A stretch of 29,904 nucleotides of DNA from the IMG/VR virus record IMGVR_UViG_3300020044_002588, positions 1 to 29,904 of that record; one strand, 5' to 3'. Below the pieces are notes generated by a model. That model did no database searches, was not told the DNA's origin, and saw nothing but the letters and a program-made list of their open reading frames with translations. The position numbers and the translations under genes were made by a program. This document shows positions 1,196-29,904 of the stretch, one piece after another. Source of the stretch: a virus (taxonomy: Duplodnaviria; Caudoviricetes). Each line of letters opens with the position of its first letter. Within the stretch, counting starts at the first letter, position 1.

Positions 1196-4100
1196 TACCA
1201 AGAAGAAGAAGGTTCCCAAGAATCAAATCTATGATGTAGCGCCGCTGATTGAGAAGAATCTTGCAGGCAAGGGATGGGAGTCCGGTGACTTCAATAGGAA
1301 TACGTTTGGTGATAGTCCTTTCTCAACTTCGCTGAATGCGACAACGACGAACGCCCCGAATACTGATTTCACGACTCCTGAGGATCAGCAGATCATTGCC
1401 GGGATTCTGAAGGACCCACGTCAGGCAGCAGCGGCTGAGGGTCCGACGTATGCGGCAGCGAATAGGTATAGCGCCGCTGATATTGCGAAGGGTTTGGGCC
1501 AGCGTGGTGCGGTTGGAAGGTCTGCGGCGACGCAGGCAAGTATCAATGAGGGTGAGAAGCAGGTAGGAAGTTTTCTCGGGCGAGTATTCGATTACACGGA
1601 TGAGGCTGATAATCCGGGTGAGTATGTGTGGGATCGAATGATTCAGGGTCTTGTCTGGACTACGGACAAGATTGCCAAGGCTGGCGTCATGTATTCAGCC
1701 GCTGCTCCATTGAGCGGTGCTGGTGATATCACGAATGAAACAGTCACTCCGGGACAGATGGGTGTCACGACGAGTGGCAGGGCAGCAAATACTATTGCAG
1801 AGTTTCTTGGTGGCGGTGAAGGATTAGCGGGTGCAATAGCCCCAATTTATTCAGCACTATTTAATCCACTTGGAATGTTGACTGATGTAAATGCTGAATA
1901 CAGCCAACCCGAGTTTGACATCAACGATCCGTCGCAGCAAGAGCAGGCATTTGTTAATGACTTGGGCGGTAAACTCCGTACTGGATTGACTGATGCTGCA
2001 TTTACGACTGTTGCCGATCCTACAATTTATGTTGGAAAGGCTGCCAAGATTGCACGGTTGCGGTACTTGGACGATACGTTCCAAGGACCTGATGGTATAG
2101 CGCGACTGGAAAAGCAAATGGTTGACAGTCTTGCGCGTCCGATGGATGAGAAGGCTGGTATTGCACGGTTTGCTGCTATGACGGCAGAGGTAGATGCAAC
2201 AACTGGTAAGAAAGTCATGTCTGCTGGAGTTATTGCCACTCGTCTTCGTGGTGCCACGATGGGCGAGACGATGGCAGCAGCATTGCATGCCAATAAGGAT
2301 GAGGAAATAGCACAACTGATCATCCGGCACATGTTCGGTGACATTAATGCTGGTAAGGCGTTGCTGGAGAAGCAGCCAAGTATTTTCCTTCCCATTGCTA
2401 GGAGACAGCGGGAAGAGATCATGGACTTGCTTGCACGTGATCCGGCCAAGAAGAAGTTGCTTGAGAAGAATGCCACGGATGCCGAGGATAAATTGACAGC
2501 AGCGATGGCTGCTGAAACACCGGGATCAGAGAAGTACATGCTTCTTGAGCGTAAGCGTGATCTTGCTCGCGACACCTATAACGCGATCATTGATGGGAAA
2601 CTTGGCGATCTTGAGGACATGAGCAATCCCATAATGAAGGGCTTGCTGTCTAAGGAGTTCAAAGAGGTCATCAAGAATGATTCGATTATTGCGAATGCGT
2701 TGACTGACGCGCAGATGGAAGTTCGCTTCGGATCAGGTGCTTCTGGGGCCATGATTGGTGCTAGGCGTGGTTTTGCCAGAGACAACGTGGTTGGCAGGGC
2801 TGTTGAGAAAAGCCGCCTGAATCGTGCCACGGCTGCGTATGAGTCTGCTGCTGAGCGGGGCCAGATGCGTGGCACTGGCAAGATGATTGATCTTGGTGAG
2901 GGTAAGTCAGTTGAGTTGATGAAGAAGAACTGGATTCCTCTTCAGTTCAATGCTGATGGGTTTCGTCGGACTATCAATATCTGGCGTTGGATGGGTGAGC
3001 AGAACCCATCAGGGTTTATTTTTACTAAGGGTGCGGCAGCGGCTGGGTCTTGGCGTGAGGTTCAGGCTGTTCTTAATGATGTGGATATTTATAGTGGTGC
3101 GCCGCGCAAGGTTGTATGGGTTGAGAAGGTCGTTGATAAGAAGACTGGTATAGCGAAGGATGTGCAGCGGACGGCGCTTATTGGGGGTAGGGAGCGTAAG
3201 GATGAGTTGATTACTGCGTACATGAGTGCGATGAAGTCAACTTCTGCTGGCGCTGATGCTGTGCAGATTGCATTGAATAAGATCGAACAGGAGATGATTA
3301 AGGATATTGGGCAGTGGCATGGGATGACTGCTGATGCGGTCAAGGATCTAGCAAAGCAAATGAGTAAAAACCGAGATAATGTAATTACTAGTCTTAGCAC
3401 AAAGCAAAGTGATAATACGCCAGCATTCTGGGTGGAGGATGGGAAAACGCATACCGCTCCTTGGCTAGAAACGCATATTCAAAATGGCACATACATGCTT
3501 AACTATCGTGCGTTGAACAAGGAACTAGACAGGATGGCCAATGATGGGTCGCTCAAGAGTCTTAATGATGCTTGGGCAATTGGACGTAATGGTGCTTCAG
3601 CGACGTATGAGGCATTCAATGCAGTGTGGCGTCCAAGCGTTCTTCTTCGTCTTGGTTACACGCAGCGAAATGTTCTTGAAGGATTGTTCAGGGCTAGCGC
3701 ATTCACGTTCTCACTTGACCCGGTAAGGCAAGCGGCAGCGACTGGAGGCTTATCGGTAAAGAACGCCTATCGAAGCAAGGGTTTCCGCAACGCTGTTGAG
3801 TCAGCGGAGACGGCAATGCGTCTTCGTGCTGCCGGTGATCCGAATGCCATGCTGCCACGAAACTACACGAAGTGGCTAGAGAGCGAGATTGACGCTCGGG
3901 AAAAGCACATCATTCAGATGGAGGAGTTCATTGAGCAGCCGGGTCGCATCATTGCTGACGTGAACAAGGAGACGCAGCAGTTCATGCTGGACTTCTATAA
4001 GGGTCAGGAAAGTCGACTTGTTAATCGTCTGGCTAAGGCGAAGGCTGCTGGTGCTGGGAGTGATGAGATTCAGCAGTTGGAGGGATGCATTACTGCTGTG

Positions 4101-14114: not shown

Positions 14115-14996
14115 ATGCCGTTGACTTTGCCTGATCCGAATCGCGCCGTTGGTGATAGTGGGCATACGTCGGATACGAATCTCATTATTACTGCTATTAA
14201 TTCTTTGCAGTCTCAGGTTGATGGTCTTCCTGCTGGTCCAACTGGCCCTAGCGGTCCTGCTGGTGCTACTGGTCCTACTGGTTCTCAGGGTCCGTCAGGA
14301 GATTCTTCGACTATTCCCGGTCCTACTGGTCCGGCTGGCGCTACTGGTCCGACGGGAGCGCAGGGACCGATTGGCGTGTCTGGGCCTACTGGTTCTCAGG
14401 GTGTCGTGGGTCCGTCTGGGCCGTCAGGCCCGCAGGGTTATGTCGGTCCTACTGGCCCTACTGGTCCGGTTGGCACTGGCCTGAATGTGAAGGGCACGGT
14501 CGCTAACGTTGGCGATCTGCCTGCTACTGGTGTCCCGGGCGATGCGTACATTATTGGCACGAATCTGTACGTGTGGTCTGCCAATACGAGCAGTTGGGTG
14601 AATGCTGGCCCTGTCGTGGGTCCGTCTGGGCCGTCGGGTGCGACTGGCCCTAGCGGTACTGCTGGTGCGACTGGTGCTACTGGTGCGTCTGGCAGTAATG
14701 GCGCGAATGGTGCGACGGGTGCCACTGGCCCGTCGGGTCCGAGTGGACCGAGTGGGCCTGCGGGTTCCAATGGTGCAGCGGGTGCGACGGGTGCGACTGG
14801 TTCTACGGGACCGAGTGGTGCGACTGGTCCTTCCGGTGCGACTGGCCCGACTGGTCCTAGCGGCCCCTCTGGCCCCACTGGAGCGGCTTCCACTGTCGCT
14901 GGTCCTACTGGTGCGACTGGACCTACTGGCCCGTCTGGTCCCGCTGGGCTGACGACAGACCCGGTTCCGACCATCTTGATGCTTGGCGGCATGTGA
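14115..14996 (+). CDS. Collagen-like (Gly-X-Y) fibre/decoration protein
   Basis: Two long GPT/GPS/GAT triplet runs flank a small globular insert ([15 protein letters not shown]...[13 protein letters not shown]). RBS AGGAG. Confidence 0.85.
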
Positions 14997-16072
14997 TGAG
15001 ATTCCATGTCGTCGGCCTGCCGTTCACTCAGACAACGGATGACTATCCTGCGTGCGCTTTCACGATGAAGGTACGCAAGTTCTGCAAGATGATGAAAGCA
15101 GCAGGCCACACTGTCTACCTGTATTCAGGTGAGCAGAACAATGCCGAGTGTGACGAGCATGTCATGTGCATCAGCGAGTATGAGCGTGCTGCTGCTATCG
15201 GCGACACTCACTACACGATGTCGTCTTTTGATTCGGCGCTGCCGCATTGGGTGCGTTTCAATACTGCTGCCGGGTTGGAGATAGCGAAGCGCAAGCAGCC
15301 GAAGGATTTCATCTGCCTGATTGGTGGGTCTGCTCAGAAGCAGATCGCTGACATGAATCCTGATCTGATGACTGTTGAGTTCGGTATCGGATATCCGGGG
15401 ACGTTTGCCAAGTATCGGGTGTTTGAGTCGTATGCGTGGATGCATACCGTGTATGGGACGACGACAACGAACGCTGCCACTCTTGACGGAAACTTCTACG
15501 ATGCTGTCATTCATGGCTACATTGATGAGGATGACTTCACTCTTGGAGATGGGGCTGGTGATGAGCAGGGCGAGTACCTCATGTTCATTGGCAGGCTCAT
15601 CGAACGTAAGGGTGCTCATATTGCGAGCATGGTCGCTGAGCGTCTTGGGCAGCGGCTGATCATCGCAGGTGTAGGCACACCGCCTTCGTACGGTGAGTAT
15701 GTCGGTCCCGTCGGTCTGGATCGTGCCGACTTGTTCCGTAACGCTAAGGCAATCTTCGCACCCACCCTGTACGTGGAACCGTATGGGACGGTGATTCCTG
15801 AAGCAATGATGTGCGGCACTCCAGCCATCACGACTGACTGGGGTGCGTTCACTGAAACAGTTGAAGATGGAGTGACTGGTTTCAGGTGCAGGACCCTTGG
15901 CGAGTTCATGGAAGCCGCTATCGCTGCACCTAATCTTGATAGGGCGCGTATCAGGGATATTGCGTTTGAGCGATTCAGTCTTGAGCGTACAGCGGTAAAG
16001 TACGAGCGTTACTTCAAACGCCTGCTTGGGCTTTGGGGCGATGGCTGGTACACGGTGAGGAGTGCTGCATGA
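14993..16072 (+). CDS. Glycosyltransferase, GT-B fold, family 4-like
   Basis: [10 protein letters not shown] and [41 protein letters not shown] match the GT4 E-X7-E signature region. ATGA overlap with the collagen gene. Confidence 0.9.
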
Positions 16073-20901: not shown

Positions 20902-21168
20902 ATGATGAATGGGGACTTCGCTGTTGATACGTGGGGCGAAGTCCTCGTTATTCTCAGTATTGTAGGAGTTGGGTTAGCGATATTGGACTGGCGTATCAAG
21001 CAGTCGGTGTCAACATATGTTGAATCTATGTCAAAAGAACTAAAACACGACATTCAGCAGATGACTCAACCTATCCAACCGGGTTACCGGAATGGCGGGG
21101 AATCGCTGTCTGATCTTGCTCATGAGATTCGTCGTGTCGCTAAGGCTATGGGAGTTGGAAATGAGTAA
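20902..21168 (+). CDS. Single-TM membrane protein of the lysis cassette
   Basis: Hydrophobic segment VLVILSIVGVGLAIL followed by an NGGESLSD motif, similar to actinophage lysis-cassette membrane proteins. Confidence 0.65.
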   Translation: MMNGDFAVDTWGEVLVILSIVGVGLAILDWRIKQSVSTYVESMSKELKHDIQQMTQPIQPGYRNGGESLSDLAHEIRRVAKAMGVGNE

Positions 21169-21388
21169 GTGGCTATCTGATGCGAGAAATCGTAGGCACC
21201 TGTACATGGTGTGCATGGCGATCATTCCGCTGCTGGTTTTCTATGGAGTGATTGCTCAGGCGGTGGCACCGTTGTGGATTGCTCTTGTTGGTGCGATTGT
21301 TGCGCCGAGCGTGGCATTGAATCACATCACTCCGAATGCTGATGATCAGGCGACAGCGTTTGAGGACTTCGATGAGCAGGCTCTCTGA
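21161..21388 (+). CDS. Holin (two TM helices)
   Basis: ATG 21161 after GGGAG. RRHLYMVCMAIIPLLVFYGVI..WIALVGAIVAP, directly upstream of the endolysin. Confidence 0.75.
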   Translation: MSKWLSDARNRRHLYMVCMAIIPLLVFYGVIAQAVAPLWIALVGAIVAPSVALNHITPNADDQATAFEDFDEQAL

Positions 21389-21831
21389 TGGTGAGACTGT
21401 GCGCTGCTGGTGTGACCTTGAGGAATCAGGTCAACGCCCGGTTCCCGCGCCGGGACAAGACGAGCGACGGCTGGATTGGGGACGCTGCACATGCTGCCCG
21501 TGAAGGCTGGGGTCTGAACGGTAAGGGGTCGTACCATAATCCTGCACCGAATGGGTTCGTTCATGCGCTGGATATTGATGAAGATTTTGGCGCTCCCGGT
21601 GATAACAGGAAGTTCGCTGACCAGTTAGCGACGTATTGCCGGTTTGGTTTTGATGGTGGCCGGATCGTACATATCGTGTATGAGGATCAGGTTGCGTCGA
21701 AGACTGCTGGTAACTGGCATTTCAGGGGGAGCGGGTATGGGCACTCGCACCATATTCATATCTCGTTCAGTGCGAAGGCTGATCTGAACGGCGCTAAGTT
21801 CTATTTGCCGATTCTTAAGATGCCGCGTTAG
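21388..21831 (+). CDS. Endolysin, M15-type zinc peptidase domain
   Basis: DGWIGDAAH, SYHNP..VHALDID and HHIHISF motifs supply His/Asp/His zinc ligands; follows the holin. Confidence 0.8.
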   Translation: MVRLCAAGVTLRNQVNARFPRRDKTSDGWIGDAAHAAREGWGLNGKGSYHNPAPNGFVHALDIDEDFGAPGDNRKFADQLATYCRFGFDGGRIVHIVYEDQVASKTAGNWHFRGSGYGHSHHIHISFSAKADLNGAKFYLPILKMPR

Positions 21832-22876
21832 CGAACAGGGCGTGCCATTCGCTGGCCCTGCATTCGATTGTCCATGTTTTCAGGACGGCCATACGCGCAC
21901 GGTAGGCCTCTTTCTTCCGCTCCCTGTGGTCCAGTAGCCGTTCCACTGCCAGCGTCCACTGCTCTGGCGTGGAGGCGAGCGTCCCGACCCCTGTCTCATG
22001 CAGCAGCCGATACTCGGGCATGTCGCTGGCAATGAACGGGATGCCAGCGGCAGCGTATTCCAGTCCCTTGATGTTGGACTTGGCCTCGTTGAACGGGATG
22101 TTGTTCAGGGGTACGAGTCCGATGTCGAATTGGAGCGCTTTCCCATAGGTCTTAATGTCACATAGGGGGCTAGTTATGAGTCGTTGTTCTGGGATTCCAG
22201 CGATGTCGCAAATGTCTTTACCTGTCGCGCCAACGTGGTAAAAAAACAGGTCATTCTTTTCAAGTACTTCAGGCAGCCATTCCCGTAACTGCTCTAGGTC
22301 GTTGTTCCTGAATGCAGTTGACCCGGCCCACCCGATGACGGGTTTGCCGGGTCTGTGGATGCGGGGCGTGAACTGCTGCGTGTTCACTCCGTTTCGGATC
22401 ATCACCACATTGTCATGGAACTGCTGGTAGTGATCCCTAAGGAATGGGGTGGATACGGTGATGATGTCCGCATGGTGTATTGATTCTTTGTAATAGTCAC
22501 GGTTGAACTTCTTGTTGCTCTCTGGATCAGTCAGCCCGTACGCCTTGTTCGCTGGTGTCAGTCCATCGAAGTAGTCGTCAATGTCGATGATGATTCTCTG
22601 CCGTGCGTTCTTCTGGGCAAGGGTGATCTGGTGTGGTGTTGGCCTGTCCATGATGAGTTTCAGCATCACCTGATTGAAGCCGTAAGCGCCGACGTTGCCG
22701 TCTTCGATGATCCCGAATCCGTGTGCGGAGTTGAAGACTGGCAGTCCCATTTGTCCTCTATGTCCACATACGACCATTGGCAGGTAGCAGCGGTAGTAGG
22801 CGCATCCTCCGGGAATTGCGTTGAATGGTGGAGGGACAGTCCAGTCACGGGTGAGGAATCCGATGTTCAGGACCAC
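21815..22876 (-). CDS. Glycosyltransferase, GT-B fold, family 4-like
   Basis: YYRCYLP, DIDD, ITVSTPFL, IGWAGS, FDIGLVPL..FNEAKSNIKGLEYAAAGIPFIAS. The likely start is GTG 22876, overlapping the upstream stop; the track start at 22993 is overextended. Confidence 0.88.
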   Translation of the reverse strand: MVLNIGFLTRDWTVPPPFNAIPGGCAYYRCYLPMVVCGHRGQMGLPVFNSAHGFGIIEDGNVGAYGFNQVMLKLIMDRPTPHQITLAQKNARQRIIIDIDDYFDGLTPANKAYGLTDPESNKKFNRDYYKESIHHADIITVSTPFLRDHYQQFHDNVVMIRNGVNTQQFTPRIHRPGKPVIGWAGSTAFRNNDLEQLREWLPEVLEKNDLFFYHVGATGKDICDIAGIPEQRLITSPLCDIKTYGKALQFDIGLVPLNNIPFNEAKSNIKGLEYAAAGIPFIASDMPEYRLLHETGVGTLASTPEQWTLAVERLLDHRERKKEAYRARMAVLKTWTIECRASEWHALFANAAS

Positions 22877-23481
22877 GTGTGGCCTTCTAGGTTGAGGTTG
22901 AGGAATGGGTTGAGCGAGTGTATGTCTACGTCGTAGTGGTCTTGTAGCCATGCTTTGACCATGCGTAGGTGCTGTTCCCATCTGTCCAGCCACATGCGCG
23001 GGTTGTCTTGGAGGAGGTTGCCTGAGGCGTACCCTTCCATGTTTGTCATGCCGTCCAGCATTCCGCAGTCAGCGCCAACGAGGATGATCTGCTGTGCCCC
23101 CATGTAGGCGGCTATGTGCATGGAGCCGTGGATGCTGCTTGAGCCGACGATGAATCCGTCTGGGTGGACTGATTCTTCTACCATGAAATCAAACTTGGTG
23201 GGCGGGTGAGGGTAGAAGTGGATGTTTGGCAGGAGCCGTTCTGGTTTTCCAGCGAATCCTTGGTCACCTTCTGGCGCGTAGAAAAGGTGGTTGGGGTGCT
23301 CTTCTGCCAGCGGGTAGATGTCTGAGTGGTAGTGGCTGTGGGTGATGAGTGTGCAGTCACGGTCGTATAGGTTCATTCGTGCTGCGGCGTTGTTGGTGGA
23401 GACGACTGTCTTGCCGTCGAAGAATCGTGGCCTCATGTATCCGAGTGTTGTCCCGCTGCCGAGGACGTAGATGTCTTTCAT
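22867..23481 (-). CDS. Maf/MptE-like (DUF115-type) putative sugar transferase
   Basis: IYVLGSGTTL..VSTN at the N-terminus and HIAAYMGAQQIILVGADC near the C-terminus. ATG 23481 forms an ATGA overlap. Confidence 0.65.
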   Translation of the reverse strand: MKDIYVLGSGTTLGYMRPRFFDGKTVVSTNNAAARMNLYDRDCTLITHSHYHSDIYPLAEEHPNHLFYAPEGDQGFAGKPERLLPNIHFYPHPPTKFDFMVEESVHPDGFIVGSSSIHGSMHIAAYMGAQQIILVGADCGMLDGMTNMEGYASGNLLQDNPRMWLDRWEQHLRMVKAWLQDHYDVDIHSLNPFLNLNLEGHTWS

Positions 23482-23756
23482 CCGACGAACTCGTAGCATC
23501 CGCATTTGCATGGTCCAGCAGCGTGCTTGTGGCTGCAAGCCACGCACGAAGTGATATCTACTGGTTCGATCTCAGCGATTGGGGCTGGCAGGGGAGCGAG
23601 TTCACGCTTCACGGGTATTTGGGTGAACACGTTTGGTTCGGCGCATTTGCTGTCATCCCATTCGACTGTTATCGAATGGTTGCCTTTGTGGCTGGCACGC
23701 TTCCCGCACCTGTCTCCAGCGATGTTGTGCGCCCAGCAGATTCTTATGTCGTTCAT
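23478..23756 (-). CDS. Small Cys/His-rich protein (probable Zn-binding)
   Basis: C-x8-C-x5-H-x3-H at the N-terminus and CxxCxHxH-x4-CxCxC at the C-terminus; RBS GAAGGA. Confidence 0.7.
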   Translation of the reverse strand: MNDIRICWAHNIAGDRCGKRASHKGNHSITVEWDDSKCAEPNVFTQIPVKRELAPLPAPIAEIEPVDITSCVACSHKHAAGPCKCGCYEFVG

Positions 23757-23800
23757 TGTTTCCTTCTTCCCATCGGATATGTGTGTCCCATCATTGCGGC

Positions 23801-23892
23801 GGTGGGGGAGAGCGAACAGGAGTGAACTCTCTCCCCCACCATCCTCAACCCTAGTTCTGAAGGATGGGGGACTTCATCACTAGGGGAGTCTT
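23801..23892. promoter_or_regulatory. Cluster of three hairpins (terminator or regulatory RNA)
   Basis: GGTGGGGGAGAG/CTCTCCCCCACC 12-bp stem (23801-23840); CCATCCT/AGGATGG (23839-23867); GGGACTTC/GGAGTCTT (23868-23892). Confidence 0.55.
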
Positions 23893-24836
23893 CATCGTGA
23901 GCGTACCTTTCGAATGTCTAGCCGGGAGTATCCCTGCTTCTCGAAAGATTCCACCGTGGATGGTTGGATATCTACCCATCGTACTTGCCACGAGTTCGTG
24001 GCTCCGTTGACACCATGAAGTATAGCCGAGGCTTCTTTCTTCATCTGATCCGCTTCTTTCGCCATGTCTCTGGCTTCGACGTACATGTTGATCGCTGCGA
24101 CGAGTTCAGGGTTGTCGATCTGTTCGCCTCCGTCATTCATCTGCATTCCTCCACGGCAGGCAGTGAAGTGTGAGCAGATGCGCTCGCACACAGCGGATGG
24201 GAGATCACGGCTGGCGTCTTCCTTGTTCTTCACTGCGTAGATGACGTCAGTGACCCATGCGTCGATCTCATCGGTGAGTGTCGGATCGTATTCAGCGACG
24301 TCAGTGATGAGGAGTTCCTCTTTCCCTGACCTATCAAGGAATGCGTTTCCTACATAGATTGGGCGTGTCTTATCAAGTAGTCCGCTGCTGATAGCGCCAA
24401 GTACGTAGAGGTGACGCTGGAACTTGTTTGACTGCGATGCTCCCTCACGCTTCGCCCAAGTGAGTCCGTCCTTGGTCTTGAGATCAAGGAGAACATTGTC
24501 CTCAGGGATGATGATGTCAGGATGGCCGCTGATCTCCGCTCCTGACGGTAGTACGGCAGTGACCCTGATCTTGTCGATGCTGCCGACAAGCCATGTCGGA
24601 AACATCTCCTTGATCGCTGCCTCCGTGTAGTTGTGGATGGCGGTTCCGATTGCGGCTGGCATGATCGGTGTCGAATCTGTTGCCGCTACCCCACGGGTCA
24701 TAAGGACTGCCTTTTGCCGGCAGAATCCGATGTCCGATGGTCCGAGGATTCCGTTGTCGCTTTGCACTGAGCGGTCGCTGCTGTCGCTGTATGAGCGGAT
24801 AGCGGCGCTGATGAGTGCCCCATAGTCTTTCATCAT
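23892..24836 (-). CDS. PD-(D/E)XK exonuclease (Cas4/RecE-like)
   Basis: GPSDIGFCRQK, GTAIH, SGHPD..LLDLKT, QRHLY and C-terminal CxxxCxxxxxC; adjacent to the annealase. Confidence 0.85.
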   Translation of the reverse strand: MMKDYGALISAAIRSYSDSSDRSVQSDNGILGPSDIGFCRQKAVLMTRGVAATDSTPIMPAAIGTAIHNYTEAAIKEMFPTWLVGSIDKIRVTAVLPSGAEISGHPDIIIPEDNVLLDLKTKDGLTWAKREGASQSNKFQRHLYVLGAISSGLLDKTRPIYVGNAFLDRSGKEELLITDVAEYDPTLTDEIDAWVTDVIYAVKNKEDASRDLPSAVCERICSHFTACRGGMQMNDGGEQIDNPELVAAINMYVEARDMAKEADQMKKEASAILHGVNGATNSWQVRWVDIQPSTVESFEKQGYSRLDIRKVRSR

Positions 24837-25552
24837 TTTCCCTTTCCTGTCTGTGCGATTGCCTTGTCAAGCCACTTCGCGAGCGTGACTCCTTGGAATA
24901 CCCAGTCGTTGACCTGTTCGGTGTTCATCTCCTGCTTGAGTTCTAGGAGTGCGGATACGTCGCTGTCGGCGATGAGTGCCTTCATGCGTTCGATCCAGAT
25001 GCCTGATTCCTCGTTGTCAGGTACAGCCGGTGGCCTGTCGATTTCCTCTACACCGTGTAGACGTAATTTTTCTTCTTCGGTATGTGCTGCTGCTTGCGGT
25101 TTGTCCAGAGTGGTGTGGACGACATCCGCAAGCGATCCGTCGTTGTACAGGCTCAGCCCGAATTGGGTTCCGAGGTTGATTGCCGCTCGCTTGAGCGCAT
25201 CCGATTCTGCTGTCTTGACTGCCATGTCGTGAGCCTCACCGCGTTGAGGGATGCTCGCGGAACCGACAGCGGCTTCGGTGTAGGTGCAGTTGAGCGAGTG
25301 GATTCTGAGTTGTCCGATGACCTTGTATCCGACATTCCATTGGCCTTTCTCGTTCTGCTCTTCGAACATCAGTTCGGCTGTCTGCACGTCCCATGACCAT
25401 GCGCCGAATCCGAAGATGCGGATGAGGTGGGCCTTGACGTCCCATGCCTCTAGGTAAGCGAGGGAGCGTCCTGCCTGTGATCGCTTGGCCACGCGGCTGG
25501 AGTGCAGTGGCTTCATCAGTTGGGCGTATTGCGCGTCGTTCAGTTCATTCAT
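24833..25552 (-). CDS. Rad52/Rad22-family single-strand annealing protein (Sak-like)
   Basis: LAYLEAWDVKAHLIRIFGFGAWS and HDMAVKTAESDALKRAAINLGTQFGLSLY are Rad52-family signatures; RBS AGGAG. Confidence 0.9.
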   Translation of the reverse strand: MNELNDAQYAQLMKPLHSSRVAKRSQAGRSLAYLEAWDVKAHLIRIFGFGAWSWDVQTAELMFEEQNEKGQWNVGYKVIGQLRIHSLNCTYTEAAVGSASIPQRGEAHDMAVKTAESDALKRAAINLGTQFGLSLYNDGSLADVVHTTLDKPQAAAHTEEEKLRLHGVEEIDRPPAVPDNEESGIWIERMKALIADSDVSALLELKQEMNTEQVNDWVFQGVTLAKWLDKAIAQTGKGK

Positions 25553-25610
25553 GTTACTCTCCTGTTCGTTATTGTTTCTCTTAGTTTACCCTATAAAAGG
25601 AGTTAGGTCA

Positions 25611-25946
25611 ATGGGCCTTAAGTATAGCGACGCATACTCGGAGATGCAGGCATTGATTGACTTCCTGAGCAAGGACCCTGACCTAGCATCCAGACTCAAC
25701 AACATCAGCAAACTCAAAGACGATTTCGCAGGGCTGCTCACAAGAGCGAGGGAAGAATCAGCCTACGAACTCAGGTCACGATACCCAGCAGATGAAGCAG
25801 AGCGACTCACTGGAATATCCAGAAGGACAATCGACCGCTGGGCATACAAGTGGAAGTACCGGCATGGACTTCCAGCGATGATGCGGATGAAGAAAGCCGA
25901 CCTAGCCAAAGCCATCGACCTATCTTTCTCCCCACATGGGGAGTAA
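25611..25946 (+). CDS. Small helix-turn-helix DNA-binding protein
   Basis: ATG 25611 after AAGGAG; ADEAERLTGISRRTIDRW HTH pattern. It is the only credible + strand gene in the right arm. Confidence 0.7.
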   Translation: MGLKYSDAYSEMQALIDFLSKDPDLASRLNNISKLKDDFAGLLTRAREESAYELRSRYPADEAERLTGISRRTIDRWAYKWKYRHGLPAMMRMKKADLAKAIDLSFSPHGE

Positions 25947-25948
25947 AT

Positions 25949-26007
25949 CTCGTGAGCGGGATTGGGCTTCCCTACCGCCATCCGCTATGGATGTTCCCGC
26001 TCACGAG
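25949..26007. terminator. 13-bp inverted repeat between convergent genes (probable bidirectional terminator)
   Basis: CTCGTGAGCGGGA (25949-25961) / TCCCGCTCACGAG (25995-26007), with an inner CATCC/GGATG stem. Confidence 0.55.
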
Positions 26008-26345
26008 GACTGAAGGCTACCGTCATCCGATAGCAAATACCAGCCATCCCATAGTTTCACCCGCATCTCGTTTGGCAGGTCGTCTGCGTACAGCAGCCAT
26101 CCGTTGACGTACGCCTCATGCCGGTTGCTCTCCACCCGCTCATGGCATTTCTGGTGCAGGTACAGCGCATTGCTCGCTAGCCCTAGCGTTTCCCTGCGAG
26201 TCCCGCCCATGCGCCGTGGGTTCCTGTGATGAAACTGCCCAGCGTAGGTAACCACCCCGCACATTTCGCACCGCCACTTGCAGCGGAGCAGGATCACTTC
26301 CTTCATAGCAGCATCGAATGACGCCTTCTGTTTACTTGCCGCCAT
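26001..26345 (-). CDS. HNH endonuclease
   Basis: RCEMC..FHHRNPRRMGG..SNALYLHQKCHERVES..GWLL pattern. Confidence 0.8.
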   Translation of the reverse strand: MAASKQKASFDAAMKEVILLRCKWRCEMCGVVTYAGQFHHRNPRRMGGTRRETLGLASNALYLHQKCHERVESNRHEAYVNGWLLYADDLPNEMRVKLWDGWYLLSDDGSLQSS

Positions 26346-26445
26346 TGTGAATCTTCACGAGAGCAGCAATGAATCCGATGATGGCGCACGCTAAGCCTCC
26401 AACGAGGAAGATTTCATACTCGCTCAATGTCACCATGTCAGGCAT
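26332..26445 (-). CDS. Small single-TM protein, 37 aa
   Basis: TAATG coupling at 26445; MPDMVTLSEYEIFLVGGLACAIIGFIAALVKIHNGGK. Confidence 0.6.
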   Translation of the reverse strand: MPDMVTLSEYEIFLVGGLACAIIGFIAALVKIHNGGK

Positions 26446-26792
26446 TACTCGTATCCTGCTTCCTTGAGGAGTTGCACCAGCATCCCAAGTGGGAGTGTGG
26501 CGTATTGATCGGATGGCGTCGTCGTTCCAGTTCGCTTGTGTATGACAGCCCCAAGAACTCCTCCGTTGTTGGCAATTTCGGAATGTAGTTCGGCAATCCA
26601 TCCGGGTAGGTTGTCGCGTCGATGATTTTTGCATTCGAAGGTAAATGGGATTGATTGTCTGCTGATCCCGTGGATGTCCCCTCGGTCGTCTTCCCAACCT
26701 GCTCTGGTCCGGTCTGCATTGAATCCTCTTTCTCGAAGATATCCCACAATGCTTCGCTCATATGCGTCTCCTTTCTGCTTCTGTGGATTCAT
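26445..26792 (-). CDS. Holliday junction resolvase (Hjc-type PD-(D/E)XK)
   Basis: KQKGDAYER..YL...G, DRGDI, FECKN, VIHKR motifs; RBS AAGGAG. Confidence 0.82.
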   Translation of the reverse strand: MNPQKQKGDAYERSIVGYLRERGFNADRTRAGWEDDRGDIHGISRQSIPFTFECKNHRRDNLPGWIAELHSEIANNGGVLGAVIHKRTGTTTPSDQYATLPLGMLVQLLKEAGYE

Positions 26793-26796
26793 GTAC

Positions 26797-27051
26797 CTAT
26801 CTCCTTATCGGCTTGGAGTATTTCTTCTTCTGCCAATTTTTTCTGCTGGCTTCCTGCCTGCATAGGACACAGCGACGGCTAATGCCGTTTCCATCCTTGC
26901 GCCATTCAGTGTTCTCCTCATTCCAATCGTGACCGTTTACGCATTTAGTTTTCGGCGGTTCAGGCTTCGGCGGAAGTAAGGAAACGCAATCCTCGCACTC
27001 GTCGTCAAGATGCATGACGCCCTCGCATACTGGGCATCGACGCTCAGCCAT
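26797..27051 (-). CDS. Small double Zn-finger protein (paralogue A)
   Basis: MAERRCPVC..CEDC followed by KTKCVNGHDWNEENT..RRCVLC; likely start ATG 27051. Confidence 0.7.
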   Translation of the reverse strand: MAERRCPVCEGVMHLDDECEDCVSLLPPKPEPPKTKCVNGHDWNEENTEWRKDGNGISRRCVLCRQEASRKNWQKKKYSKPIRR

Positions 27052-27331
27052 TCGCCTTAGCCTTATCTTTGCGCCGCTTATTTCTTGCGTTATGACAGGC
27101 ACGGCAGGCTCGCGTCACTGACTGCCGATTGTTGCCGACATAGACGTCGATCCTCGTATTTGCTTCGGTCATCTCATGGCCTTTTGAGCAATGCGTCCTG
27201 ATAGGGCGTGGCTTTGCGAGGAGTTCGGCAGCACGCGCCTGAGCCACTAATAATTGCGCGTAGGCTAGGCATTCCTGACAGTCGAGTTCAAGGATGACAG
27301 CCTCGCACTCTTTGCATCTGCGCTCAGTCAT
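27044..27331 (-). CDS. Small double Zn-finger protein (paralogue B)
   Basis: MTERRCKEC..CQEC followed by RTHCSKGHEMTEANT..RACRAC; ATGA-coupled start at 27331, RBS GGAG. Confidence 0.72.
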   Translation of the reverse strand: MTERRCKECEAVILELDCQECLAYAQLLVAQARAAELLAKPRPIRTHCSKGHEMTEANTRIDVYVGNNRQSVTRACRACHNARNKRRKDKAKANG

Positions 27332-27357
27332 GGCTGATCTCCATTGATGGCTGCGAT
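27322..27357. repeat. 36-bp gene-junction direct repeat, copy 1
   Basis: GCTCAGTCATGGCTGATCTCCATTGATGGCTGCGAT; 34/36 identical to 27534-27569. Confidence 0.9.
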
Positions 27358-27543
27358 AGCGAGAAGTGCATCGTTCTTTACGACGCACCACGCCTCCCAG
27401 AACTCAAACGGGATAAGCGCCGCTATGGCATTCCGGGCAGCATCTAGCACCCGATGCTCGCAGGCACGCAACTCATCGCAGATGCACCACGCGGGAGGGT
27501 CGCTCTCATGCGTCGCCCAGCACTCTGGTAGATGCTCAGTCAT
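27328..27543 (-). CDS. Small hypothetical protein (HLPEC..CICDELRACE)
   Basis: ATGA-coupled start at 27543, RBS AAGGGAG; ends AINGDQP. Confidence 0.7.
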   Translation of the reverse strand: MTEHLPECWATHESDPPAWCICDELRACEHRVLDAARNAIAALIPFEFWEAWCVVKNDALLAIAAINGDQP

Positions 27544-27569
27544 GGCTGATCTCCCTTGATGGCTTCGAT
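27534..27569. repeat. 36-bp gene-junction direct repeat, copy 2
   Basis: GCTCAGTCATGGCTGATCTCCCTTGATGGCTTCGAT; a degenerate third copy lies at 28022-28045 (20/24). Confidence 0.9.
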
Positions 27570-28025
27570 GATCCTGACCAGCGCTGGCGCGTCGCTGCTG
27601 ATGCCCCACTCGCCGACCGCTGCCCCGACCCGCTGCACCGCAGCATCAAGGGCTGCCTTGATGTGGCCCGGTTCACCCCAACCATCATCCATAGCGGCAC
27701 CGTAGCCTTCGTGGTAGCCAACTTCCCGCTCCTTGATCAGTTCGGTTAGGCGCTTGCATGGGAGGCAACCGGGACTGCACATGCCTCCCTCTGCCCATTG
27801 TGGGTGCGGAGAGAAAACGTCCCGTTGGCCTCTGTCGTACGAAGTTTGCTCGATGCCGCCGATCATCTGGTCCATACCTGACTGGAAAGCCGCTGCGATA
27901 GCCGCTGCGGCATCAGCAGCGAGAACAACCTCCACGAACACATCATCTGGAACAACCCCGTGCGGCTGTTCGTCAGGGCACATCAGGTCGTCGTCAATTA
28001 CCTTGTACAGCGCCATGTTTATCAT
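27540..28025 (-). CDS. Hypothetical protein
   Basis: 161 aa, ATGA-coupled; C-terminus AAVQRV...AIKGDQP. Confidence 0.7.
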   Translation of the reverse strand: MINMALYKVIDDDLMCPDEQPHGVVPDDVFVEVVLAADAAAAIAAAFQSGMDQMIGGIEQTSYDRGQRDVFSPHPQWAEGGMCSPGCLPCKRLTELIKEREVGYHEGYGAAMDDGWGEPGHIKAALDAAVQRVGAAVGEWGISSDAPALVRIIEAIKGDQP

Positions 28026-28294
28026 GGCCGTTCTCCCTTAATCGCGGAAAGACACGTATCCCTGAGTGCATACCCCGGCAGCGACTCCACCCGCTGCACG
28101 GCAGCGGCGAGCGCGTCCCGATGCCCCTGCAAGTAACTAGGTGGTGTCCATCGCTCAGTCGACGCATGGACTTTTGCTTCTTGCGAACGCGCTTCGTCGA
28201 TAGCAGCCTCTGCGTCAACAAAGAGGACAAACGGGCCGTCCTCGTCAAGCATCGGGCCGAAACTCGTCCACCTGTAGCGGAGAATGTCAGTCAT
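28022..28294 (-). CDS. Hypothetical protein
   Basis: 90 aa; C-terminus AAVQRV...AIKGERP is shared with the neighbouring gene. Confidence 0.7.
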   Translation of the reverse strand: MTDILRYRWTSFGPMLDEDGPFVLFVDAEAAIDEARSQEAKVHASTERWTPPSYLQGHRDALAAAVQRVESLPGYALRDTCLSAIKGERP

Positions 28295-28475
28295 TGGGGA
28301 CTACCGTCAGCGGAGGCTTTGTAGCCCCGTAGAGAAGCACGCAATCCCATGAACAAAAATCGCGAGTGTCCTCGTAGTTTCCACCGACCATATGCACATT
28401 GATGAACCCACAGTCTTCTGGCTTAACTGACCAAGAGTCACAGCCACTACGGTCACAGTGCGTTGCGTAACTCAT
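28287..28475 (-). CDS. Small Zn-finger protein (CDRSGC...DFCSWDC)
   Basis: ATGA-coupled start at 28475, RBS GAGGAG. Confidence 0.68.
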   Translation of the reverse strand: MSYATHCDRSGCDSWSVKPEDCGFINVHMVGGNYEDTRDFCSWDCVLLYGATKPPLTVVPND

Positions 28476-28675
28476 TCTGCCCACTCCTCTTCATGATCTG
28501 AGTCGCATGCCGGACACGCCCAGTAGTAACGACGCGCATCAACCATTGCCGTGACTTTCCCCTCAAACGGACAGCACTGCCCATCATCATCCTTAATCTT
28601 GCATGTAACGTGCATGTCCTCCTCATCAGCCTCAGGAGGAGAAGCCAGTTTCCAAGAGTCGTAATCAACATGCAT
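28472..28675 (-). CDS. Small acidic Zn-ribbon protein (YDSWKLASPPE...WACPAC)
   Basis: ATG 28675 after GGAGAGG. Confidence 0.68.
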   Translation of the reverse strand: MHVDYDSWKLASPPEADEEDMHVTCKIKDDDGQCCPFEGKVTAMVDARRYYWACPACDSDHEEEWAE

Positions 28676-29123
28676 AACGTCCACCTCTCCAATGCTTGAG
28701 TCCAGTCCCATCACCATTCCAGTTGGCGACGGTGTAAAACATCATGTCCTGATAGAACCGATGCCATTTATGTGCCGGGGTAGCACGCAGAGCGCGAGCG
28801 ATCTCCGTACCCACAGTGAATCCCCACATGCTCCGCAGTTCTTCGCGCATCATCCAGCCTGCGCCTACAGCGAGCGCATCCAGTACCTGATACGTGCCTT
28901 CGTACATCCCGTTGTTGCCGGTTCCCCAGTATTGGAATCTCCCTTCCCTCTGGCCGATGCACTTGCGTACAGGCTCCTGTGATTCACGGAAGAACTTCCC
29001 GGTGTATGCGGAGTCCTGCACTCCGGTCTGAATGGGGTCGTTGCGTTGAGCGATGACATGTATCGGCTCTACAGGATGGCTAGAAAAGAGTAGTGCTGCT
29101 GTCAGAATCATCGTGCTGATCAT
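28665..29123 (-). CDS. Secreted lysozyme-fold transglycosylase (Rpf-like)
   Basis: N-terminal hydrophobic signal (MISTMILTAALLFSS); RKCIGQREG..Y..GTYQ, QD and terminal HW..C resemble the resuscitation-promoting-factor-type domain. Confidence 0.62.
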   Translation of the reverse strand: MISTMILTAALLFSSHPVEPIHVIAQRNDPIQTGVQDSAYTGKFFRESQEPVRKCIGQREGRFQYWGTGNNGMYEGTYQVLDALAVGAGWMMREELRSMWGFTVGTEIARALRATPAHKWHRFYQDMMFYTVANWNGDGTGLKHWRGGRYAC

Positions 29124-29460
29124 GTGTCTCCAATGGTCGGAACTTCGCCACTTTCAGTACTGCTTGTCTGCGGCCTGATCGTCCTGTCCTGCGCTCTCCA
29201 CTGTCGAAGATGAGTCCCTTCCTCTTGAGCGATGATGGTCGTGCGGTGATGCTGCTGTATGAGTATCCGGGGTGCATAGCGATGAGGTCGTCCTGTGTCA
29301 TTCCCCAGACGCCAGCGAGTTCGATATCTGCGAGGATCATTTCCTCAAGTTTAGATACGTCAATGGATTCTGCTGCCTCTATTGATGTATCTGATGCATC
29401 TGATGTATGCAAAACTCGGGCGGTGTCAAAATGTGCTGCGTCATTCATATTGAACTCCAT
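29080..29460 (-). CDS. Winged-helix DNA-binding protein
   Basis: TSIEAA..GMTQDDL..YSSITARPSSLKRKGLIFDSGERRTGRSGRRQAV pattern of phage wHTH proteins. Confidence 0.7.
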   Translation of the reverse strand: MEFNMNDAAHFDTARVLHTSDASDTSIEAAESIDVSKLEEMILADIELAGVWGMTQDDLIAMHPGYSYSSITARPSSLKRKGLIFDSGERRTGRSGRRQAVLKVAKFRPLETHDQHDDSDSSTTLF

Positions 29461-29469
29461 ATCGTGTGA

Positions 29470-29904
29470 TTACTGTATGTGTGAGTAGACCGCATCCCAT
29501 TCGTCCTGATAAATCGGAACCCACGGGAACACGTCGCCTTGCTTCACTGCCACGGGAAACCGCCGATCAGTAGCACGATCACCACGCCACGCGCCAAGGC
29601 GCATCAAGCGCCTTCCATCCTTCGTTGACATTGGTTGCATCCCGTAACCAAAGTCAGGCCATCGCAGCCAGTAGGAAGAACCTTCAGGACGCATGTTGTT
29701 TCGGTCGTTCATCGTCCCATGACCAGCGTGATGCTCCACGATGACCGTGCAGTCGACTTCCTGCCTGATGCGGTCAACAACTGACTGAATCGCACGCACT
29801 GACCTGTGAGCATCATCGGATACGTCAGTCAACTTGTACGCCGTACCCATGTACAGGATGTCTGGCGAGTAATGCACTACCCGTCGTATGACATCAGCGC
29901 GATC
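29470..29904 (-). CDS. AAA/RecA-fold helicase (RepA/AAA_25-like), C-terminal part, truncated at window edge
   Basis: The frame is open to position 29904 (DRADVIRRVVHY..); contains CTVIVEHHAGH and MRPEGSSYWLRWPDFG motifs. Confidence 0.7.
   Translation of the reverse strand, partial: DRADVIRRVVHYSPDILYMGTAYKLTDVSDDAHRSVRAIQSVVDRIRQEVDCTVIVEHHAGHGTMNDRNNMRPEGSSYWLRWPDFGYGMQPMSTKDGRRLMRLGAWRGDRATDRRFPVAVKQGDVFPWVPIYQDEWDAVYSHIQ

Follow-up and report, generated by a model that had tools for sequence, protein, structure and literature searches.

A putative phage RNA element behind an annealase-exonuclease operon, with a hairpin loop that covaries with the first gene's ribosome-binding site

Does a hairpin loop at the end of a phage recombination operon match the ribosome-binding site (RBS) at the start of that operon by chance, or do the two sites pair? 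The question is raised by the window analyzed here, which is the whole stretch of 29,904 nucleotides (a 29.9-kb virus record that is itself a fragment). A hairpin follows two minus-strand genes, and 10 nt of its loop are complementary to the first gene's Shine-Dalgarno (SD) region, 1737 nt away. A first-pass annotation, made from this sequence alone, had described a 12-bp perfect stem and an exact reverse complement at the annealase SD, and both were confirmed in the sequence. The features are as follows.

23801 to 23840, minus strand: hairpin P2, in which 23829-23840 pairs with 23801-23812 (from sequence, fold and covariation)
23813 to 23822, minus strand: anti-RBS stretch within the P2 loop (mRNA letters CUCCUGUUCG), the exact complement of 25559-25568
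23844 to 23888, minus strand: hairpin P1, beginning a few bases past the exonuclease stop codon, with a C-rich loop at 23863-23871 (from fold)
23892 to 24836, minus strand: gene for a Cas4/RecB-like exonuclease of 314 aa (phrog_35747 exonuclease, E 3.4e-52; phrog_1706)
24833 to 25552, minus strand: gene for a Rad52/Sak-family single-strand annealase of 239 aa (PF04098, Rad52_Rad22, E 5.9e-24; phrog_37089 recombinase, E 1e-36)
25559 to 25568, minus strand: target site in the A-rich leader and SD of the annealase gene, about nt 9-18 of a predicted 24-nt leader
25583 to 25611, minus strand: sigma-70-type promoter-like site, TTGACC-17-TAAACT, before the annealase gene
25611 to 25946, plus strand: divergent small HTH-like gene of 111 aa (weak Pfam HTH_28 and HTH_23 matches below cut-off)
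23478 to 23756, minus strand: downstream gene for a 92-aa Cys/His-rich protein (alignment A2), the RBS of which is not the target of the loop

The window was compared with its relatives in a set of 141 loci, window included, which came from five scans (the metagenome scan contributing the best 80 of 183) and were admitted when the exonuclease was at least 45% identical and its 3' end complete. These gave 89 distinct downstream sequences, 70 of them with the annealase 5' region. For comparisons of loop and RBS, hairpins were chosen blind to the RBS; both parts were available in 62 loci, among which the doubtful L017, L140 and L156 were retained.

The exonuclease, ~30 to 35% identical to Arthrobacter phage Cas4 exonucleases, has a start that overlaps the annealase stop. 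The GGAG core of the annealase RBS ends 6 nt short of the ATG (25552), the sigma-70-type site lies 30 nt ahead of that ATG, and the predicted leader of ~24 nt is A-rich and nearly unstructured. A matching promoter pattern is found at most 90 nt upstream of the annealase gene in 58 of 70 loci, as against 3 of 89 where the 3' end of the exonuclease was examined. Neither an internal nor an antisense promoter is conserved in the loci, and no P2-bearing locus carries a promoter motif aimed back at the element; an excess of TANNNT (46/89), considered as an internal promoter, was rejected, being mostly the stop codon itself. With the loop motif and the SD on the same strand, one predicted promoter, overlapping genes and no internal promoter, we infer that annealase, exonuclease and element are co-transcribed. 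The annealase and HTH-like genes start divergently 58 nt apart (25553-25611), an arrangement also seen in relatives, and the annealase -35 box overlaps the HTH-like start codon. Another hairpin (25951-26005) is situated between the convergent HTH-like and HNH genes, and its flank at 25933-25958 shows 73% similarity to 23878-23903, where the exonuclease stop lies (repeat D18).

P2 forms the second half of a two-hairpin element (P1-P2) that begins at the exonuclease stop codon. The GC-rich stem encloses a loop of 16 nt (23813-23828), so that the annotation was right about the 10-nt match (plus-strand letters CGAACAGGAG) and wrong in taking it for the entire loop. The fold z-score of the element is -2.9 on the minus strand and -1.2 on the plus strand. 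When the P2 helices of relatives were selected on Watson-Crick pairs alone, their mismatches, read on the mRNA strand, were 6 G-T, 1 T-T and 0 A-C; since these are G-T and not A-C, the fold is assigned to the mRNA strand. Among 43 homologues, 81% of the cells of the stem are paired and 104 double changes occur, giving a covariation score of 0.647, which is above all 500 shuffles (0.206) and all slid registers (at most 0.39). A P2 model found a single copy in 5/5 whole records; these copies belonged to the training set, and the single-copy result alone is new.

The hairpin fits neither a classical intrinsic terminator nor an Rfam 15 family. A classical intrinsic terminator has a short-loop GC stem and a U-tract; the P2 loop here has 16 nt, a U-tract lies behind P2 in 6 of 78 loci (on the opposite strand in 9 of 78), and an intrinsic terminator scan of the window did not call P2. 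With no U-tract and no promoter, internal or antisense, that is conserved, the simplest view is that the element belongs to the mRNA or is cut out of it. The Rfam 15 covariance models, C4 and 6C included, gave no match over the element (window 21000-29904, E at most 5), and in 20 related loci the sole match at gathering score is a hammerhead in L005, away from the element. Contigs of relatives were all that metatranscriptome run X1 (share 0.07) yielded; one 219-nt contig spans the exonuclease end, P1 and P2, but its strand, ends and level are unreadable and it is possibly DNA, so it carries no weight here, nor for the habitat.

The annotation had pointed to P2 and the annealase RBS, both of which stand, and had overlooked P1, the exonuclease RBS as a second target and a look-alike in a second clade. 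The P1 loop is an unpaired C-run in 43 of 78 P2-bearing loci, often followed by GU (23863-23871 and homologues), while in the clade of L112, L115-L118, L121, L129 and L070 it is a G-run and the P2 5' arm is C-rich. No conserved complement of at least 8 nt to the P1 C-loop was found in the loci, and the HTH-gene RBS was rejected as a partner (-0.8 to -9.6 kcal/mol). Of 43 cases, 31 carry a G-run of at least 4 in the 5' arm of P2 and 6 carry one in the 3' arm, while the other 6 have none in either arm; an alternative fold with the P1 C-run is possible. A third short palindrome or hairpin, after P2 and just before the RBS of the downstream gene, is seen in L002, L004, L034, L078, L120 and L124.

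A strong hairpin is present in 76 of the 82 distinct loci with at least 110 nt past the exonuclease stop, and in 73 of 82 its loop is pyrimidine-rich (at least 60%); the detector missed L144, where a bulged hairpin is visible. The element is absent from L017, L022, L046, L103, L114 and L150. In the 6.8 to 7 kb examined, Tank, SilentRX, Beagle and Sunfish, all of them cultured, carry both genes and no anti-RBS hairpin, so that 4/4 of these Arthrobacter/Curtobacterium phage regions are without it. As it is missing from six loci and these four regions, the element is dispensable. Tank, SilentRX and Beagle (L157-L159) have short-loop tandem hairpins on both sides of the recombinase gene, with no RBS complementarity.

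Within the window, the match could be accidental, as the annotation itself had cautioned: of 59,707 window 16-mers, counted on both strands and with the loop's own registers, 22 show at least 10 nt of complementarity to the annealase start region, so that a single genome would be no more than suggestive. Besides the two 10-mer copies that the annotation placed at functional positions bracketing the operon, a third exact copy occurs at 3284-3293 (plus strand); lying in-frame inside a 1903-aa open reading frame, this one was taken as chance. Comparison with relatives makes the loop-RBS match non-random. In the 62 loci, the mean loop-start duplex is -14.8 kcal/mol for cognate and -11.4 kcal/mol for non-cognate combinations (z -8.8, permutation), and perfect runs average 7.5 and 5.7 nt, respectively. 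The cognate effect persists after clustering at 90, 80 and 70% (n = 44, 39 and 20; z -6.9, -6.8 and -5.2). On the other side of the balance, the cognate pair ranks first in only 6 of 62 rows, with a median rank of 10, in part because many loci share one RBS.

Independent pairs, defined as non-overlapping on a FastTree of the exonuclease and differing in both loop and RBS, point the same way, bearing in mind that the tree represents one protein and that phage mosaicism may blur pairs. By energy, the cognate combination is favored 19:1 (24 pairs), 16:2 (21 pairs; 3 ties, p 0.0013) and 15:1 (the larger-distance set of 16 pairs, p 0.0005); by run length, the same sets give 11:3 (p 0.057), 14:2 and 11:1. 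The prediction that loop and cognate RBS would covary in relatives is thus borne out. Double changes include RBS AGGTG with loop CACCT (11 loci), AGGGG with CCCCT (L119), AGGGATGG with CCATCCCT (L034), GGAAAGGAGA (L138) and ACAAGGAG (L036, L083). The match reaches ~5 nt upstream of the SD core and follows lineage-specific changes, and several pairs (L104, L122 and L042) are complete only with G-U. Loop-RBS mismatches were also tallied for a G-U bias, with the aim of separating RNA pairing from a shared DNA site, and gave 5 versus 3 internally and 12 versus 22 at the edges.

The annealase start is the preferred target. Among 36 candidate start regions of the window it has the longest perfect complement (10 nt), with a predicted hybrid energy of -15.8 kcal/mol and a net energy of -11.0 kcal/mol after both sites are opened. 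Across loci, the median net energy is -6.8 kcal/mol, with values below -5 in 39 of 62, and the predicted duplex extends over the SD core, its median position being -15 to -7 relative to the start codon. When equal lengths are compared, the annealase start is a better partner for the loop than the next start downstream in 51 of 53 loci. Runs of at least 8 nt link it to the annealase RBS in 29 of 62 loci, to the exonuclease RBS in 13, to either in 38, to both in 4 and to neither in 24; in some relatives, then, the exonuclease RBS is a second target, alongside or instead of the annealase RBS. Where the exonuclease gene stands apart from the annealase gene, such matches to its RBS are more frequent (7/18 versus 6/44; p 0.04, uncorrected for kinship). 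In the window, a start at 28475 on the minus strand gives a duplex of -21.6 kcal/mol against -18.6 kcal/mol for the annealase, with a run of only 7 nt; its start region (28472-28500) is possibly a second target or a chance match.

A similar arrangement is found in other Rad52-bearing phages. The P2 model weakly matches a hairpin just 3' of a DUF932 gene (25 to 27 bits, E 0.04 to 0.12) in 5 of 29 DUF932 loci searched, the same five records having first been reached via the annealase. In L161, L162, L164 and L166, arrays of small genes precede DUF932, most of them with a type II hammerhead in front (e.g., L162:1161-3613). The loop matches a common RBS, GAAAGGGAAG, by 10 to 13 nt at 6, 6 and 1 upstream genes in L161, L162 and L164, respectively, with one further 9-nt match in L164; downstream genes match it by at most 8 nt. 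In L166, which the P2 model does not match, loop and upstream RBSs are both shifted (GTTGCCC/GGGCAAC, 7 nt, 4 genes). Type II hammerhead ribozymes flank the upstream target genes (11 matches in 4 loci). Six of these are in L162, where all six matched RBSs are upstream of the hammerhead at 3550-3613; if active, the ribozymes would force action in trans, because a hammerhead stands between all six targets and the hairpin. The second lineage, only four loci of one clade with a weak and putative homology to P2, therefore hints at action in trans. As the look-alike adjoins DUF932 and has other targets, a model of Rad52-specific autoregulation was downgraded.

The capsid protein of the window is closest to Streptomyces phages (31%), and the annealase and exonuclease are closest to those of Arthrobacter, Streptomyces and Curtobacterium phages; on this basis the host is likely an actinobacterium. 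Tyrosine and serine integrase domains (PF00589, PF00239) were absent from 5 related records, one of them rated 100% complete, which makes a role in lysogenic immunity unlikely. Direct repeats (94% over 36 nt; 27322-27357, 27534-27569 and 28022-28045) coincide with stop-start junctions of consecutive small minus-strand genes and suggest cassette shuffling. Two glycosyltransferase genes and a sialyltransferase/MptE-like gene (14993-16072, 21815-22993 and 22867-23547) point to glycosylation of virion or DNA.

We consider it probable that loop-RBS pairing represses annealase translation, mainly by fold-back on the same mRNA, a reading that agrees in part with the feedback silencing proposed in the annotation. 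A host-type promoter would yield one mRNA with a short, unstructured, A-rich leader, on which ribosomes could load freely until RNA polymerase had crossed ~1.7 kb, so that the distance of 1.4 to 1.8 kb would set a delay. The P2 stem would then display 8 to 12 unpaired pyrimidines, which may capture the SD and ~5 nt upstream of it, near the free 5' end, and the resulting duplex would exclude ribosomes. The overlapping exonuclease gene would be silenced via translational coupling, or directly where its own RBS is present, and on balance the recombination proteins would be made in an early pulse of capped size. A nuclease-resistant P1-P2 fragment might also act in trans. In this compact model, a lytic phage could time or cap its recombination proteins without a protein repressor.

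We think it unlikely that the element works chiefly in trans, as a stable small RNA set free from the transcript, which would keep count of the transcripts made and possibly silence superinfecting kin that share the RBS, as c4 RNA does. In that role, RBS-loop variants could serve as specificity types. Two strong stems could resist decay, the exonuclease RBS matches of at least 8 nt (13 of 62 loci, both genes in 4) would suit such an RNA, and self-cleavage in L162 would place six matched RBSs on molecules other than that of the hairpin; however, the element lacks a dedicated promoter, the second-clade homology is weak, and immunity is an improbable use in phages whose relatives have no integrase domain. 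Very unlikely, in our view, is a U-less terminator or mRNA-stabilizing hairpin with a generic anti-SD loop that fits the annealase incidentally. The position right behind a stop codon and the GC-rich stem would suit a transcript end, and non-cognate pairs already reach -11 kcal/mol via the shared core, but the match extends ~5 nt beyond that core with lineage-specific changes, the RBS next downstream in each phage is the poorer fit in 51 of 53 comparisons, independent tree pairs favor the cognate partner, and U-tracts follow P2 in just 6 of 78 loci. A terminator role could coexist with pairing, yet it leaves the pairing unexplained.

A shared DNA site would yield the same covariation signal as RNA pairing, and the divergent HTH-like gene overlaps the promoter. 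Both 10-mers might then be operators of an HTH-protein repressor or roadblock, or recombination inverted repeats, that co-evolve via one reader protein. This is highly improbable, considering that one copy is always in the loop of a covarying, strand-specific hairpin, that only 20 of 62 loci yielded an HTH homologue, that no recombinase was found in the 5 records and that several pairs are complete only with G-U. Covariation is also blind to the sign of the effect, and the target is 9 to 18 nt from the predicted 5' end, where pairing might shield the end from nucleases or bridge the mRNA ends for ribosome recycling; we give such an activating or protective role little credence, as the duplex covers the SD core itself and the leader, already unstructured, offers nothing to unmask. 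Least credible of all is the plus-strand transcript that the annotation had entertained as an RBS-mimic decoy for ribosomes or small RNAs. The plus strand of the window can form the same perfect stem, but its fold is the weaker one, the wobbles of relatives would be A-C on that strand, and no promoter motif faces the element in any P2 locus.

Beyond the favored repression of annealase translation, it is tempting to imagine, although we think it doubtful, a widespread and reprogrammable RNA switch at the end of early operons of uncultured actinophages, in which one loop-displayed anti-RBS seed silences the early genes with a matching RBS. These would be annealase and exonuclease here and, in trans, a hammerhead-separated early-gene array in the sister lineage; RBS-loop variants would serve phages in co-infection as incompatibility codes, and the annealase itself may speed pairing, thereby closing a feedback loop. 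Judging by the lineage with hammerhead arrays, a single small RNA could turn off a whole early-gene set.

As far as sequence comparison can tell, the element is a real, previously uncatalogued phage RNA with a natural compensatory signal for loop-RBS pairing over 1.7 kb, and its function is presumably regulatory. We found no published description of it in a search that covered part of the large candidate catalogues. The main text of one of them mentions neither Rad52 nor exonuclease, and the supplements searched contained no match (PMC10690425). The motif could therefore be an unnamed candidate in such catalogues (PMC10690425, PMC5737381).

The best reading of the element is anti-RBS feedback repression like that of icaR or c4 RNA, in what would nevertheless be a new RNA family. 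The P4 CI RNA, which is grouped with c4, likewise comes from a phage, arises within a longer transcript and has loops that pair with an RBS. The c4 RNA of P1/P7, as described in PMC5320573, shares with P2 its place within a longer phage transcript, loops that pair with an RBS, and target specificity, whereas three stem-loops, cleavage by RNase P and a role in lysogenic immunity set it apart. The P2 loop covaries with its target near the RBS as in c4 and CI, but the element has two tandem hairpins in place of the three-stem fold, lies 3' of its target, accompanies recombination genes, does not match Rfam C4, and occurs outside a temperate immunity context, integrase domains having been absent from the 5 related records. 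The 6C/B11 RNA of mycobacteria, in the account of PMC10470900, is also actinobacterial, with two hairpin loops, one of them C-rich, that pair with RBSs, but it is an independent chromosomal small RNA with two C-run loops and many targets. In our element, by contrast, the C-run is confined to P1 (43/78), P2 is fitted to one phage RBS, and there is neither a conserved promoter of its own nor an Rfam match.

In hok, fold-back keeps the full-length toxin mRNA silent until its 3' end is processed, and lambda sib retroregulation works through RNase III decay. In both, as proposed for P2, an upstream gene comes under the control of a 3' element when transcription has reached that element, but neither has a loop-displayed, RBS-specific seed behind a recombination operon. 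To our knowledge, pairing of the 3' region of a bacterial mRNA with its own SD over a long range is documented in very few cases, and proof by natural compensatory changes is rare. One such case, the icaR mRNA of Staphylococcus aureus, in which pairing of the 3' untranslated region with the SD blocks ribosome loading, is described in a paper that mentions the hok fold-back as a comparison (PMC3868564). There, as proposed for P2, the coding region is followed by an anti-SD motif that pairs with the SD at the other end of the message (here a predicted transcript), and the choice between cis and trans action is left open in that account (PMC3868564). What sets icaR apart is that one chromosomal gene is involved, with RNase III cleavage and with its motif, UCCCCUG, placed in a long 3' untranslated region (PMC3868564), while P2 presents its motif in a covarying hairpin loop behind a two-gene phage operon. 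Dozens of phages with natural compensatory variants provide evolutionary proof of this kind across 1.4 to 1.8 kb and two genes, and this natural set of loop/RBS pairs should be useful for the question of cis versus trans action that icaR left open.
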